Shown piece after piece: positions 1,056-32,080 of a stretch of DNA of 64,000 bases. The stretch is from Phycisphaerales bacterium. GTDB taxonomy: Bacteria > Planctomycetota > Phycisphaerae > SM23-33. How positions within the stretch are numbered: position 1 is the stretch's first letter; each line of letters starts with the position of its first letter. The notes under the pieces are model-generated. The model worked only from the letters and a program-made list of their open reading frames with translations. It was not told the origin of the DNA and did no database searches. The stretch lies in contig JABGPZ010000069.1 of NCBI GenBank assembly GCA_018644725.1, positions 148,238-212,237 on the forward strand, read 5' to 3'. A program made the translations under genes and the position numbers.

Positions 1056-1129
<74 letters not shown>

Positions 1130-1177
1130 TACGGCAAGGCTGAAACGTCTTCGGATGGTTCCAGCCAACCCCATACT

Positions 1178-1250
1178 GGGGGCGTAGCTCAATTGGGAGA
1201 GCACCTGCTTTGCAAGCAGGATGTTGCAGGTTCGAGTCCTGTCGCCTCCA
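1178..1250 (+). tRNA. tRNA-Ala (anticodon TGC)
   Basis: GGGGGCGTAGCTCAATTGGGAGAGC ... anticodon loop TTTGCAA ... GGTTCGAGTCC. The G3:U70 acceptor pair characteristic of tRNA-Ala is present. Confidence 0.9.
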
Positions 1251-1767
1251 TGAAAACTCTATCGCGCTAGACCCCTGTTTACAGGGTGATTTGCACGAGA
1301 GCATGACTTTGAAAAAGAAAAGTTGGAAAACTTCACTTTTTTGAAAGAAAGCACTTGCAAGAGACAGAGCGAACGGCTATATTCTCCGCCCCGATGCGAA
1401 ACCGCAACGGAGCGAACAAGCGTCATCTGAGTGACGCGAAAAGAAAACTTCGAAAAAACGAAAAAAGAGCTTGCAACTTAGCGAGCGAATCAGTAAGATG
1501 TTTCACCCTTCGCTGATAACTCCGCGAAGGGAACACATAACCGACGAGCCGCAAGGGTTCGTGTAAGAAGCTGATTGACAATAGCATAGGATTAGAGAAC
1601 GTTCGAATTTCCAAAGAATTTGAACCGAGAACCAAATAAACGAGCGTTGAACACGTGCAAGCGTGTTCGATTGAACGCGCGCAAGCGTGTTCTAAAATGA
1701 ATCGATACAACTCTTATTATGAATGGCAGCTTGACTTGAAGCGGTCCGGAAACGGGCTTGCGACAAA

Positions 1768-17389: not shown

Positions 17390-17478
17390 TAGGCCCGAAG
17401 GGCCGTCAGTTGATAGCCGGGGGCGTAAGCCCCCGGTAGAGTTGCTAAATGAGTTGAGCCCCGAAGGGGCGGCAGAGA
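17390..17478. repeat. REP array (left flank of the RAYT): modules GGCCCGAAGGGCC, GCCGGGGGCGTAAGCCCCCGG, GCCCCGAAGGGGC
   Basis: Three GC-rich hairpin palindromes read directly from the sequence. The same modules recur at 17934-18092 (inverted), 31889-32080 and 47212-47400. Confidence 0.8.
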
Positions 17479-27782: not shown

Positions 27783-28328
27783 TTAGCGCCGATGTGTCGA
27801 GCTGCGCGAGCTATGGCGCGTCGAGGTCGGCGGACGGTGTGAGGTTGTGCCACTGCGGTGTGAGGTTGGCGGACGGTGCGAGGTTGTGCCACTGCGGTGC
27901 GAAGTTGTGCCACTGCGGTGCGAGGTCGTGGTGCGGTTGCGTTGCCACGGCGAACTCGCGGACGGCCCTTGCCGCCAGGGCGAAGTGCTGCGTGTGGTCA
28001 CTGGTGAGGATCGATGATGCGACGTCGGCTTGTGATATGACGTCGGTTTGTGATGGCTGGGTTTGTGATATGATGTCGGTTTGTAGTGGCTCGATTTGTG
28101 ATAGCTGGGTTTGTTGTGGGAGACGATCACGCGCGGGGTGGAATAGCCGCTATGGTAGACCGTCGGGCGGTAGTAGGCGTGGCCCCAGTCATAGCCTGCC
28201 GAGACCGTCACGCGTGGGCGATGATAGCGCGAGTGGCGCACGCTGGCATGGGCGAAATCGCAACCCGAGGCCATCAGCAACGCGGCCGCGACCAGTCCGA
28301 ATGTGAGGGTGTGCTTGAGGTGGGTCAT
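27783..28328 (-). CDS. Putative lipoprotein with His/Tyr/Ser-rich tandem repeats (YHKPSHHKPTSYHKP..., TSHRSGTTSHR...)
   Basis: Signal peptide with lipobox-like LLMASGC. Strong SD (AAGGAGA) upstream. The underlying DNA is tandemly repetitive. The antisense ORF 27794..28306 lacks a signal peptide. Confidence 0.5.
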   Translation of the reverse strand: MTHLKHTLTFGLVAAALLMASGCDFAHASVRHSRYHRPRVTVSAGYDWGHAYYRPTVYHSGYSTPRVIVSHNKPSYHKSSHYKPTSYHKPSHHKPTSYHKPTSHHRSSPVTTRSTSPWRQGPSASSPWQRNRTTTSHRSGTTSHRSGTTSHRPPTSHRSGTTSHRPPTSTRHSSRSSTHRR

Positions 28329-28575
28329 GGTATTCTCCTTATTCTTTGTGGTTCTTCATTGCCTCATTCTATGGGGGCTAACGGGAAGGAGACAACTCCT
28401 ATTTCGATAAAATCAAAAATTTATTTTAAAAGTCGGTTTGAATAGTAACATTGGAGATGGGTTTGGAAACGGAACATTGGCTTGGGGAAATAGGCGATTA
28501 TCTCTGGTGGCGGAGCGAGAATAATTATTAGCGTATAATTAAGATTAATTTTTTAAGAATTTCAGTATATTCTTA

Positions 28576-28603
28576 TTGTAAAGTACGATGTTTTTGGTAT
28601 AAT
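28576..28603 (+). promoter_or_regulatory. Putative sigma70 promoter with extended -10 (TGgTATAAT) upstream of PEP-CTERM gene A
   Basis: TTGTAA (28576-28581), 16-nt spacer, TGGTATAAT (28595-28603), within a ~300-bp AT-rich intergenic region. Confidence 0.5.
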
Positions 28604-28657
28604 GAGGGCGAAGGTTAATTCAGACTATTGGATACGACCCTGCAGAAAGGATGCACC

Positions 28658-29485
28658 ATGAAGAATACACAACTGATCTCGCTTGCAACGTTACTGCTGT
28701 GCGCTACGGTTTCGTTGGCAAAGCCTCCAAAGAAACCTAAGGATCCGCCAGTGACACCGCCCACAGGGGATGGACTGATTCTCAAAGAGACGATCAAGTC
28801 CGGCTATGGTGACTATACTGGAACCGCGACCCTCGGTGGAATCTATACCCAGACGTTGGACCACATCGGGCCAACCCACCTTCACTTCAAGAAAGATTCC
28901 TACACGGGCCCGCTTTCCGAGGCGGCCTATGGCGATGGACACCATGTGGATCTGTTTACGGCGGGGATTTTTCAAGAGACCTACGAGACGGACATCGCTT
29001 ATGACGTGACGGCCTTGTCGGCCGGTCCGGTGGGCGGGGTAGAGAATGCTGCTTTGTTCCCCACGGGAATGGGCCAAGTCAAGGCCGATGCCTTGGGGAA
29101 ACTCTTCGGACTTTACTCGGCCGAAGCGGTTGCGCCAAAATCCGGCGACAGCACCGACCAAACGGCGGCATTCCAAGCGGCCGTCTGGGAAATTATTCAC
29201 GAAACGTCTGGCACCTATGGTCTTGGCGATGGCGAATTCCAGATCGCCGGTACCGGGGACTGGATGGACCTGGCGGACCACTATCTCTCGACGTTCGAGC
29301 AGGCCACCATCGCGGGTGAGTTGATGTTGCTTTCCAACGAGACCTATCAGGATTACATTGTGATGGGCGGTCAAGTGGCGGTCGAAGCGCCGTCGGCCCC
29401 GGCCGTGCCCGAACCAATCACGCTCGCATCGCTAGGGTTGTGCTTTCTTGGCGCGGGAGGTTACCTCCGCCGCCGGCTGACATAA
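28658..29485 (+). CDS. PEP-CTERM sorting-domain protein (paralog A); N-terminal domain of unknown family
   Basis: Signal peptide. C-terminal VPEPITLASLGLCFLGAGGYLRRRLT is the PEP motif + TM helix + Arg cluster typical of exosortase substrates. Paralogous to 30933..31730 (conserved blocks SYTGPL, AAFQAAVWEII, DYIVMG). Confidence 0.8.
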   Translation: MKNTQLISLATLLLCATVSLAKPPKKPKDPPVTPPTGDGLILKETIKSGYGDYTGTATLGGIYTQTLDHIGPTHLHFKKDSYTGPLSEAAYGDGHHVDLFTAGIFQETYETDIAYDVTALSAGPVGGVENAALFPTGMGQVKADALGKLFGLYSAEAVAPKSGDSTDQTAAFQAAVWEIIHETSGTYGLGDGEFQIAGTGDWMDLADHYLSTFEQATIAGELMLLSNETYQDYIVMGGQVAVEAPSAPAVPEPITLASLGLCFLGAGGYLRRRLT

Positions 29486-29503
29486 CCGTTGCAATGATGG
29501 GAC

Positions 29504-29534
29504 AAAACCGCAGGCTTGCCCTGCGGTTTTTTTG
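29504..29534 (+). terminator. Rho-independent terminator downstream of PEP-CTERM gene A
   Basis: AAACCGCAGGCTTGCCCTGCGGTTT hairpin followed by T7. Confidence 0.75.
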
Positions 29535-29575
29535 TGGTCAGACGAGTTCCGCCGAAGAACAAATTGGGCGAGTAC

Positions 29576-30532
29576 CTAGCCTCGCGGGTGAAATTTTTGG
29601 TGAATACTTTGGAGTCGTTTGGCATCGACGTGGGTGTAGATTTGGGTGGTGGCGACTGAAGCGTGCCCGAGCATGTCCTGGACACTGCGCAGGTCGGCGC
29701 CGCCGGCGAGGAGGCTGGTTGCGAAGCTATGGCGGAGAGTGTGGGGCGAGACCGATTTGACGATGCCGATCCGCTGTGCGTATCTCTTTACCATTGTGTA
29801 GACTGCAGTGCGGTGGAACGCTTTTCCGCGGTTGGACAGGAAAAGACGGTCCGGACTGACGGGCGTTTTCAGGCGCCGGTAGTCGCTTTCGAGATAATCG
29901 TTGACGGCCTGGACTGCCCGCGGCGCGACGGGAATCAGCCGTTCTTTGTTGCCTTTGCCGAGTACGCGGAGCAGCCCGTCGGTTTCGTCGAGGGCGCGGC
30001 GGGGAAGGTTGACCAGTTCGCTTACGCGCAGGCCCGTTGCATAAAAGAGGATCAGGATCGTCCGATCGCGCGTGGAAAATGGGTCCAGCTCGTTGTTGGG
30101 TGCGGCGAGCAGGTCGCGCAATTCGGTCTCGTTGAGTACCGTCGGCAGATAGCGTCCGCGCTTGGGCAGGTCGATGCTCGCGGATACGTCGCGGTCCTGA
30201 AGGTTTTGCAATACCAGAAATCGGCAGAACATACGAACCGATGCGAGGACGCGGGAAATCGTGGACACTTGCCAATCGCTCTGGGTGCGGATGTGGTGGA
30301 GGAAGGCTTCGACATCGGTCGCGCAGAGTTTGCGCAGATCACAACGGCCTCGCTCGTGGAGACATCCCAAGAACGTCAGCAGGTCGCCACGATAGGCGAT
30401 GCGGGTATTCTGCGAGCGGCCACACTCGATCAAAAGATAATCGAGAAATTCACGCAGCCAGCGGACCGCTTCAGACGGCAAATCGCAGAGGTCGGCTCTG
30501 GGAGGTAGTGTGGGCATGGTGGGGTTTGGCAA
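29576..30532 (-). CDS. Tyrosine recombinase, XerC/XerD family
   Basis: 318 aa. C-terminal catalytic region with R...HTLRHSFATSLLAGGADLRSVQDMLGHASVATTQIYTHV (R-H-R-Y signature). Confidence 0.85.
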   Translation of the reverse strand: MPNPTMPTLPPRADLCDLPSEAVRWLREFLDYLLIECGRSQNTRIAYRGDLLTFLGCLHERGRCDLRKLCATDVEAFLHHIRTQSDWQVSTISRVLASVRMFCRFLVLQNLQDRDVSASIDLPKRGRYLPTVLNETELRDLLAAPNNELDPFSTRDRTILILFYATGLRVSELVNLPRRALDETDGLLRVLGKGNKERLIPVAPRAVQAVNDYLESDYRRLKTPVSPDRLFLSNRGKAFHRTAVYTMVKRYAQRIGIVKSVSPHTLRHSFATSLLAGGADLRSVQDMLGHASVATTQIYTHVDAKRLQSIHQKFHPRG

Positions 30533-30932
30533 AGGCCTGGCGGTAGTGGCGGCATTGCTTATAGCAATCGCCGCAGCGGGTCATGACGTGGGTGAGATTG
30601 CGGAGGGTGATCTTCCCCGCGCAAGCCGAAGTGGGGTGTTCCAGGAAGGGGCACATGAATCCATTCTCCTTTGGCTGGTGGAAATCCGTTCCATCCCTTT
30701 TATCGGCGATTTTCACCCTCACTCATGAGGATTAATTCTATTTCTCAACTGGCGGGTTGGATCAATTGTATGGTGGAGGATTGGATTTTGCAGATCGCGG
30801 GGGGAGAAATAGTGATTAATTTCCGAAAAAAAATAATGAATCTTTCTTGAAATCCCGATAAATTGGGATAGAATGCAAATGTATTCCAGATCACAAGGCC
30901 CTTGGGCCTTTCTGGGAAAGAGGACAAAAACC

Positions 30933-31730
30933 ATGCGAATTCAAAATCCCATCCTGATGCTTGTGACGCTGCTGCTGGCAAGTACGGCGGTTTTTGCTGC
31001 GCCTGGTGGTAACAGCGGAGCCGACGGTGTGTCTCTCAAGTACGTCCCGGGTAGCAAGTTCAATGGAAAAGTCTATGTCAACGGCCAGACCTATGCCCAC
31101 GAGTTCGGCTACTTCGGCCCGATTCACATCCAGTTCAAAAATAATTCCTACACGGGCCCGCTTGCCGAGGCCGTCTACAATCAGGCCGACAGCAAGCGGC
31201 ATCTGAACGTTTTCGCGGCTGGGCTCTTCCAGCCTGCGCGCGAGTCGATGCAATTCTACACTATGCTCGACGTGGCCGATGGGCCGCTCGGTGGACCAGA
31301 AAACGCGACCCTGTTGCCCAATGGCATGGGCCCCGAAAAAGCACTCGCACTCGACAAACTGTTCGGGATGTATTACCCCGAGACCATCACTCACGAAGAC
31401 CCCGCTCACGGCGCGGCGTTCCAGGCTGCAATTTGGGAAATCATCTACGAAACCTCCGGCGAGTACAACGTCGGCGATGGTGACTTCATCATCGACGCCG
31501 AAGGCGAAGGCGACTGGTGGAATCTCGCGAACTACTATCTCGCGACCTACGAGGAAGCGACCCAACTGGCGAATCTGATGATCCTCACCAACGATACCTA
31601 TCAGGATTATATCGTCATGGGCACCGGCCAGAAAACGCCCATCACGCCCGTGCCCGAGCCGATCACGCTCGCTGGCCTGGGGCTGTGCGTTCTCGGCGCA
31701 AGTGGATATCTCCGCCGCCGGATGAGCTAG
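30933..31730 (+). CDS. PEP-CTERM sorting-domain protein (paralog B)
   Basis: Signal peptide MRIQNPILMLVTLLLASTAVFA. C-terminal PVPEPITLAGLGLCVLGASGYLRRRMS. Paralog of 28658..29485. Confidence 0.8.
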   Translation: MRIQNPILMLVTLLLASTAVFAAPGGNSGADGVSLKYVPGSKFNGKVYVNGQTYAHEFGYFGPIHIQFKNNSYTGPLAEAVYNQADSKRHLNVFAAGLFQPARESMQFYTMLDVADGPLGGPENATLLPNGMGPEKALALDKLFGMYYPETITHEDPAHGAAFQAAIWEIIYETSGEYNVGDGDFIIDAEGEGDWWNLANYYLATYEEATQLANLMILTNDTYQDYIVMGTGQKTPITPVPEPITLAGLGLCVLGASGYLRRRMS

Positions 31731-31754
31731 ACAAACATTCTGCACACGTCACAA

Positions 31755-31790
31755 CGACAGGAGCCTTGTTGCTCCTGTCGTTTTTTTTTC
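31755..31790 (+). terminator. Rho-independent terminator downstream of PEP-CTERM gene B
   Basis: GACAGGAGCCTTGTTGCTCCTGTC hairpin followed by T9. Confidence 0.8.
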
Positions 31791-31888
31791 GGAAATGGGG
31801 ACTGGTACCCTTTGCTCTGTATAGAAGATCACATTTTCCAGTATCTGGAATTTACACGATGAGATTGTTTCCGTTTATTTGTGTGAAT

Positions 31889-32080
31889 TGAGGCCCGAAG
31901 GGCCGGCCGTCGATAGCCGGGGGCGTAAGCCCCCGGACCAGTGCGAAAAGAAATCGAGCCCCGAAGGGGCGGCAGACATTGGACTCACGATTCTTCTGTC
32001 GCCCTTTCAGGGCTCACTTCGCCGGGCTGTCTACCGGGGGCTTACGCCCCCGGCTATCCACTGTCGCGCCTCCGGCGCTG
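31889..32080. repeat. REPIN-like inverted REP doublet with no transposase between the arms
   Basis: GAGGCCCGAAGGGCC, GATAGCCGGGGGCGTAAGCCCCCGG, GAGCCCCGAAGGGGCGGCAGA on one arm. GCCCTTTCAGGGC, CCGGGGGCTTACGCCCCCGGCTATC, CGCGCCTCCGGCGC on the other. Same modules as the RAYT flanks. Confidence 0.8.

Follow-up and report, generated by a model that had tools for sequence, protein, structure and literature searches.

A 64,000-nt stretch of contig JABGPZ010000069.1 from Phycisphaerales bacterium (hereafter, the window) carries two paralogous genes, PEP-A and PEP-B, on either side of a gene for a tyrosine recombinase. The evidence assembled here makes it probable that PEP-A and PEP-B encode exported proteins whose core resembles the thioester domain (TED) but lacks the means to form a thioester, that the recombinase between them is an ordinary XerD, and that the locus is not a genetic switch. 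Gram-positive adhesins use the TED fold to bind their targets covalently. The proteins described here belong to a family of TED-like sequences that counts thousands of members in metagenomes, most of which end in a PEP-CTERM sorting signal.

The PEP-A and PEP-B products are 47% identical over their full length (BLASTP, E 2e-76). This agrees with the original prediction, which had described them as paralogous PEP-CTERM proteins, and the conserved blocks to which it had drawn attention (SYTGPL, AAFQAA[VI]WEII, and QDYIVMG) are present in both. Curated libraries (Pfam and NCBIfam) match the C-terminal tails only and contain no model for the core domain. The earlier description of the core as an unrecognised domain family is thus correct in that no curated model names PEP-A or PEP-B, and incorrect in that the family very likely represents a remote branch of the TED (Pfam PF08341).

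While a word-indexed protein search turned up just a handful of relatives of PEP-A and PEP-B, an exhaustive search with a profile of six core sequences retrieved 3,129 cluster representatives (clustering at 50% identity) at E<=1e-3, including 811 at E<=1e-10. Among the best 150 of the 3,129 matches, protein length varied from 144 to 308 aa and was mostly about 250 aa. The consensus of a 148-member family alignment reads FC[I][DE]xxQ ... AAAFQxAVWEI ... QDY. The cysteine corresponding to the thioester cysteine of TEDs is kept in 138 of 146 members (~95%), the glutamine of QDY is present in 142/148 members, and the aspartate that follows it in 145/148. At E<=0.1, the PEP-CTERM model PF07589 matches 98 of the 148 aligned proteins. 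At the same threshold, PF08341 matches 59 of the 148, with the best E-value of 4.7e-7, and no other Pfam family unrelated to anchoring recurs. A distant member, P0005, matches PF08341 at E 5.8e-4. The family consensus sequence matches PF08341 only, with a score (24.4 bits, E 4e-5) that exceeds the gathering cutoff of 22.

Structure prediction of the shared domain had been proposed as a check in the original prediction. An AlphaFold model of the PEP-A core built on a deep alignment was confident (pLDDT 88.9, pTM 0.87), while an earlier model built from six sequences (pLDDT 44.8) was discarded. In the confident model, three long central helices lie between beta regions, which is the topology reported for TEDs, where beta-sheet regions enclose three core helices (Walden et al. 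2015, PMC4450167). The two best matches found by Foldseek in the PDB were both TEDs: SfbI-TED (5a0l, probability 0.95) and the TED adhesin FNE (5dcq, probability 0.96). All other PDB matches had probabilities of 0.05 or less; the next match after the TEDs was at 0.02, and a roughly hundred-fold gap in E-value separated it from them.

Three sequence motifs are characteristic of TEDs: [YFL]C followed by a hydrophobic and a hydrophilic residue; a helical motif, TQxx-hydrophobic-W-hydrophobic-x-hydrophilic; and, in a strand close to the C-terminus of the domain, hydrophobic-Q-hydrophilic-hydrophobic-hydrophobic (Walden et al. 2015, PMC4450167). The glutamine motif is found in both PEP-A and PEP-B as YQDYI, at the start of strand 212-215 of the model. 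The helical motif appears as FQAAVWEIIHE or FQAAIWEIIYE within helix 146-160, and its first residue is F rather than T. In most TEDs this motif is present, although it is not essential. The occurrence of the three motifs in the family in the same order and in the same secondary structure context ties the family to the TED, as does the agreement between the Pfam matches of individual members, the match of the consensus, the fold model, and the Foldseek result.

Several observations weigh against this assignment, and most of them would be expected if the shared domain were an unrelated new fold whose short motifs resemble those of TEDs by chance. Taken individually, PEP-A and PEP-B have no match to PF08341 even at E<=1 and so fall below its gathering threshold. 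Family HMM profiles compared with PDB sequences retrieved no solved TED, only chance matches to antibodies and nanobodies that were partly driven by the signal peptide, and the family consensus found nothing in the PDB. When the family profile was compared by hhalign with the class II TED of pLS20 TIE, a TED with experimental support, FCID was aligned to YCID alone, without significance. The Foldseek TM-scores to the TEDs are just ~0.4. TED sequences are, however, documented as extremely diverse (PMC4450167, PMC9210967), and chance resemblance would have to account for the TED being the sole recurrent non-anchor Pfam family, for a consensus score above a curated cutoff, for both top structural matches being TEDs well separated from the next, and for the placement of all three motifs. 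We therefore consider an unrelated fold unlikely and retain the assignment of the core to a remote TED branch.

The predicted fold of PEP-A and the order of the motifs are like those of the TEDs of Gram-positive adhesins (SfbI, Cpa, and FNE of streptococci, and TIE proteins). In both cases the domain follows a signal peptide and is extracellular (by prediction for PEP-A and PEP-B), and the wider PEP-A/B family keeps the cysteine and the glutamine. The architectures differ. The Gram-positive TEDs sit as heads at the N-terminus of long stalks built from isopeptide or ester domains and use the LPXTG/sortase system, whereas PEP-A and PEP-B are single-domain proteins of ~250 aa with the PEP-CTERM/exosortase signal of diderms. 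A few family members appear to carry other sorting signals in place of PEP-CTERM, namely VPDSG-CTERM in two proteins (best E 1.6e-6) and a weak LPXTG in two (E 0.037), which hints that the domain may be used with more than one anchoring system.

The thioester cysteine is one of only two fully conserved TED residues (PMC4450167), and its change to serine abolished the function of the pLS20 TIE TED adhesin (PMC8092201). In the family alignment, the nearly invariant cysteine column is occupied by Thr101 in PEP-A and by alanine in PEP-B, so that the site reads FTAG and FAAG, respectively, and the first TED motif is missing from both proteins. The acidic residue two positions downstream is replaced by glycine in both. 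Direct reading of the sequences, which does not depend on the alignment, shows that the mature ectodomains of PEP-A and PEP-B are free of cysteine; the only cysteines lie outside them, in the PEP-CTERM helix (one per protein) and in the signal peptide of PEP-A (one). Therefore, the Cys-Gln thioester formed by known TEDs is chemically excluded in PEP-A and PEP-B. In their cysteine-containing relatives, a thioester may form, as the retained cysteine and glutamine suggest. An ester bond between threonine and glutamine in PEP-A, by analogy with ester-bond domains, was considered and rejected, because PEP-B has alanine at this position and the flanking acidic residue is lost.

Members lacking the cysteine are rare (8/146 in the sample) and include P0003 and P0004, the nearest relatives of PEP-A and PEP-B. 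A PEP-B orthologue from a sister species (contig L020) is 76% identical to PEP-B and also has alanine at the cysteine position. The dN/dS value for this pair is 0.11, compared with 0.08 for the xerD orthologues of the same two genomes. PEP-B is under purifying selection and, given the shared alanine and the low dN/dS, is not a decaying gene.

The C-terminal tails of both proteins read VPEPITLA(S/G)LGLC.LGA.GYLRRR and consist of a PEP motif, a transmembrane helix, and a basic cluster. With PF07589, the tails of PEP-A and PEP-B score 22.1 and 20.2 bits, respectively, against a cutoff of 20.7; with TIGR02595, the PEP-B tail scores 16.4 bits against a cutoff of 16. The signal peptides claimed in the original prediction were confirmed by inspection as typical of the Sec type, using a basic n-region, a hydrophobic core, and cleavage between SLA and K or between VFA and A as criteria; they are MKNTQLISLATLLLCATVSLA, followed by K, and MRIQNPILMLVTLLLASTAVFA, followed by A. 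A PEP-CTERM signal marks a protein for processing by exosortase and for anchoring at, or release from, the outer cell face or the exopolysaccharide matrix. PEP-A and PEP-B share the signal peptide, the VPEP motif, the hydrophobic helix, and the RRR cluster with known exosortase substrates (TIGR02595, PF07589; for example, the flocculation protein PepA, NF033554), but their core lies outside every curated PEP-CTERM subfamily model. Gene calls for the ~21 kb of the source contig that surround the locus did not include an exosortase. Homologues P0005 and P0010 adjoin EpsH/EpsI exosortase and exopolysaccharide (EPS) export genes. Together with the PEP-CTERM tails, this suggests that PEP-A and PEP-B are processed by exosortase. 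The gene for the cysteine-containing P0005 closes a tandem array of seven or eight unrelated PEP-CTERM genes (contig L013, 2378-8752), and this array sits between a sugar transferase gene and a block of polysaccharide export, chain-length, and exosortase EpsH-EpsI genes, a textbook exosortase locus.

The features of the locus are listed in Table 1. Each of the two PEP-CTERM genes was claimed to have its own promoter region and a strong terminator, and consensus and terminator scans bore this out. AGGA-type ribosome-binding sites precede the ATG codons of both genes, and the terminator scan scored the hairpin and T-run as strong at 29504-29530 downstream of PEP-A and at 31753-31782 downstream of PEP-B. 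Since its stem is flanked by an A-run and a T-run, the terminator between the convergent PEP-A and xerD may work in both directions. Activity of the promoters is predicted from their match to consensus elements.

Table 1. Features of the PEP-A/xerD/PEP-B locus (window coordinates)
Feature	Position	Strand	Description
PEP-A promoter, sigma-70-like, predicted	28576..28603	+	TTGTAA, 16 nt, TG-TATAAT; consensus scan, 10/12 matches, extended -10 TG
PEP-A gene	28658..29485	+	275 aa; signal peptide, TED-like core aa 22-249, PEP-CTERM tail aa 249-273
Intrinsic terminator, PEP-A/xerD convergent gap	29504..29537	+	11-bp stem, A-run before, T-run after
xerD, XerD-type tyrosine recombinase	29576..30517	-	ATG at 30517 per gene callers, 313 aa; open reading frame (ORF) reaches TTG at 30532
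Small four-cysteine ORF, conserved	30471..30656	-	61 aa, directly upstream of xerD, overlaps xerD start
PEP-B promoter, sigma-70-like, predicted	30847..30874	+	TTGAAA, 16 nt, TAGAAT; consensus scan
PEP-B gene	30933..31730	+	265 aa; signal peptide, TED-like core aa 23-239, PEP-CTERM tail
PEP-B intrinsic terminator	31753..31789	+	12-bp stem, then T-run

These elements suggest the following scheme. PEP-A and PEP-B would be transcribed independently, each from its own σ70-like promoter and with its own ribosome-binding site and intrinsic terminator. Each product of ~250 aa would be exported by the Sec machinery and then handled by exosortase through its PEP-CTERM signal, and the TED-fold domain would be displayed at the surface of the cell or within the exopolysaccharide matrix. 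Having lost the thioester cysteine, PEP-A and PEP-B most likely act there as non-covalent binding proteins or as structural proteins of the surface and matrix. XerD and the small protein encoded next to it would form a housekeeping pair, whose position between PEP-A and PEP-B would be an accident of local gene order.

The recombinase was correctly described earlier as a full-length member of the XerC/D family: it contains both integrase domains (PF00589, E 5e-43; PF02899, E 6e-18) and aligns over its whole length with XerD and XerC resolvases. The catalytic R, K, HxxR, H, and Y residues are visible in ATGLRVSE, GKGNKER, HTLRHSFAT, and LGHASVATTQIYTH. XerD (TIGR02225) is its best-scoring model, at 316.3 bits, while the XerC model gives 293.9 bits against a cutoff of 335.15. 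The protein passes the subfamily model NF001399 (PRK00283) with 310 bits (cutoff 279). Among its homologues there is a smooth transition to proteins annotated as XerD, both in Phycisphaerae and in other phyla, at 44-53% identity, and the orthologue in the sister species is 85% identical. The neighbours of the locus are housekeeping genes (hisB, hisC, der, ribD, pyrG, murJ, and lpxD). The XerD score is, on the other side, 13 bits short of the equivalog cutoff of 329.6, which weighs against a straightforward assignment. Based on the best-scoring model, the gradation of homologues, the conservation of the small ORF, the housekeeping neighbourhood, and the mean GC content of the gene, an ordinary housekeeping XerD-type chromosome-dimer resolvase, a possibility that the original prediction had also allowed for, is favoured; such an enzyme would be expected to act, together with a partner recombinase, at a chromosomal dif site. 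A tblastn search revealed no second Xer in the 64-kb window. Exact protein look-up of the 318-aa version starting at TTG returned no match, since gene callers use the ATG start. A scan of contigs with XerD found no close relative (best identity 43%), and the synteny data described below came from exact look-ups of XerD homologues instead.

In an Actinomycetota metagenome-assembled genome (L006; 2044-4561 and 10541-11839), pyrG lies immediately upstream of a gene for a 37% identical XerD, and der is ~6 kb away. In the window, too, der, xerD, and pyrG lie within 11 kb. This proximity could be coincidental, or it could be left over from an ancient linkage of housekeeping genes.

The 61-aa ORF between xerD and PEP-B (30471-30656, minus strand) was absent from the original account of the locus. 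It follows the pattern MCPFLE...C...LRN.T...C...C and has no match in Pfam or NCBIfam. An ORF of 61-63 aa with this pattern occurs in four Phycisphaerae lineages: besides the window, it immediately precedes xerD and overlaps its start in the sister species (L020, 1036-1217; 79% identity) and in two more distant contigs (L024, 7859-8050, and L026, 7805-7996; 27-31% identity). Residues M1, C2, P3, L5, C12, R19, N20, T22, C28, and C35 are invariant. A four-cysteine ORF of no known family preceding xerD sets the examined Phycisphaerae apart from other XerD resolvases. The pairing holds even in relatives whose XerD is just 50% identical to ours; thus, the conserved partner of xerD is the small ORF and not the PEP-CTERM genes. 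It is probably co-transcribed with xerD, and its product could be a Xer accessory or zinc-binding factor.

In the sister species, the gene order is PEP-B orthologue, small ORF, xerD, a gene for a His-rich protein, and a gene for a WD40 protein. In place of the ~1.15-kb unit formed by PEP-A, its promoter, and its terminator (window 28431-29579), this species has 292 bp of unrelated AT-rich DNA, so PEP-A is either an insertion in the present lineage or a loss in the sister lineage. The PEP-B promoter of the sister species (TTGATA, 16 nt with shared CCGATAAA, TAGAAT) has the same orientation as in the window, while its intergenic surroundings have diverged. This match was read by eye, as MAFFT failed to line up the two promoters because the lengths of the intergenic regions differ. 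In the distant Phycisphaerae, where XerD is 50% identical, xerD has other neighbours, and none of the flanking genes is TED-like. Conversely, four other members of the PEP-A/B family have no recombinase nearby and adjoin exosortase/EPS genes or housekeeping genes.

The position of a tyrosine recombinase gene between two paralogous surface protein genes with AT-rich upstream regions had earlier led to the suggestion that the locus is phase-variable or shufflon-like. In such a locus, the surface protein being made would change when the XerD-like recombinase inverts a segment with a promoter or swaps PEP-A and PEP-B, as in fimS switches (FimB/FimE) and shufflons (Rci), where a tyrosine recombinase is likewise encoded next to surface protein genes. 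A search of the assembled sequence for inverted repeats around the promoters, a check proposed at the time for long-read data, revealed two candidates. The PEP-B promoter and start codon lie between the arms of a 14-nt inverted repeat with one mismatch (30777-30790 / 30942-30955), and a perfect 15-nt A-run inverted repeat (30819-30833 / 31782-31796) brackets the whole PEP-B gene. However, repeats like the 14-nt one occur about once per 6 kb in the window, including inside ribD and murJ, and its arm within the PEP-B coding sequence is not conserved in the sister species, whose PEP-B N-terminus differs. No inverted repeat brackets the PEP-A promoter, and neither promoter is flanked by repeats above chance expectation.

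The layout of the genes and the comparison of genomes also speak against a switch. PEP-A and PEP-B are complete genes, each with its own promoter and terminator, and partial inverted gene cassettes are missing from the locus. As both genes point the same way, a recombination event between PEP-A and PEP-B would lead to loss of xerD and not to a change of the gene in use. With 69 and 64.5 bits, the scores of the recombinase on the DNA invertase models NF007371 and NF007370 are far under their cutoffs (222 and 221), which sets it apart from invertase-type enzymes. The claim that xerD is divergent between the two genes is valid relative to PEP-B but not relative to PEP-A, with which it is convergent. 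The sister species lacks PEP-A and yet keeps xerD, with the PEP-B promoter in the same orientation, and the four family members mentioned above lack a nearby recombinase. Colinearity with the window was seen in eight contigs, which come from independent metagenome assemblies of at least six samples; one differs from it by a single mismatch, and the other seven match it at 100%. None of these assembled contigs has the alternative orientation; since assemblies collapse minority orientations, this colinearity speaks to the assembled orientation only and leaves room for a rare inversion, which is a point against our reading. The same sequence is also present in several metagenomes. Overall, repeats, layout, colinear assemblies, and synteny are all at odds with the phase-variable or shufflon-like interpretation, and we regard it as very improbable.

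An inverted pair of Acido-Lenti-1 elements downstream of PEP-B was considered as a target of the recombinase and rejected, as two further sites of the window carry such pairs without a recombinase gene. The two copies (RF01687; 31891-31936, minus strand, and 32034-32079, plus strand) score 51.1 and 52.8 bits against a gathering score of 37 and lie between the PEP-B terminator and ribD, where together they make up a 49-nt inverted repeat whose arms are 97 nt apart. Their core palindrome, CCGGGGGCGTAAGCCCCCGG, makes up three inverted pairs in the window (the others at 17417/17974 and 47238/47354), against a chance expectation of zero. Several other assemblies have contigs that stop within the element, which therefore behaves like a multi-copy repeat of the REP or MITE type.

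Equally improbable is a small integrated mobile island, in which one or both PEP-CTERM genes would have arrived with the recombinase acting as integrase. The replacement of the PEP-A unit by unrelated DNA in the closest relative and the AT-rich intergenic regions could be seen in its favour, and the locus was indeed originally described as an AT-rich island. This description did not hold: the GC contents of PEP-A (57.6%), xerD (59.7%), and PEP-B (57.8%) are at the window mean of 58.8%, and the contrast in base composition noted earlier is real for intergenic DNA only (36.8% GC upstream of PEP-A and 48.2% between xerD and PEP-B). There is no tRNA gene near the locus (the sole tRNA genes of the window are at 1056-1251), and no direct repeats are present at its ends. 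The recombinase is XerC/D-like rather than phage integrase-like. It is found together with the small ORF at the same place in a relative that lacks PEP-A, and the pair recurs in distant Phycisphaerae in unrelated neighbourhoods, as would be the case for a core gene. PEP-A is most similar to PEP-B (47-55% identity), which indicates local duplication rather than import.

With the idea of a switch set aside, the arrangement of genes at the locus is ordinary, and its value lies in the domain assignment, which we see as a modest advance. TEDs have been described as a covalent adhesion device of Gram-positive bacteria (PMC4450167; PMC8092201; bioRxiv 10.64898/2026.02.05.703941). In the literature searched, no paper mentions thioester domains together with PEP-CTERM, and where the words "exosortase" and "thioester" co-occur, no link between them is made at the level of titles and abstracts. 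The TED is a known adhesin domain, and what is added here is a TED-like family of thousands of mostly PEP-CTERM-tailed proteins; the Pfam TED model reaches this family just marginally, and no NCBIfam model covers its core. There is about an even chance that the ~250-aa family consists of genuine thioester domains and forms a large branch, almost without curation, from environmental diderms, with most members sorted by exosortase. Covalent adhesion through thioesters, be it to particles, exopolysaccharide, or other cells, would in that case be common beyond Gram-positive bacteria. The conserved subclade that includes PEP-A and PEP-B no longer has the cysteine, although selection on it remains purifying, as measured for PEP-B; it would then be a naturally thioester-dead lineage kept by selection and a natural control for the fold without the bond. 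The assignment raises the questions of whether exosortase-sorted TEDs form thioesters, what targets they attach to, and what role the fold plays without the bond.

Two further features of the window lie outside of the PEP-A/xerD/PEP-B genes. An ORF at 27783-28328 (minus strand) encodes a 181-aa protein with a lipoprotein-like signal (LMASGC) followed by tandem repeats rich in His, Tyr, Pro, and Ser; the repeats consist of SYHKP and TSHRSGT units and correspond to tandem DNA repeats of 15-39 nt. The protein has no family match, and a counterpart with 50% identity is encoded next to xerD in the sister species. At 1056-1251 (plus strand), genes for tRNA-Ile(GAT) and tRNA-Ala(TGC) are separated by 48 nt, which is the usual spacer pair of an rrn operon, and the start of the window thus probably lies inside such an operon.

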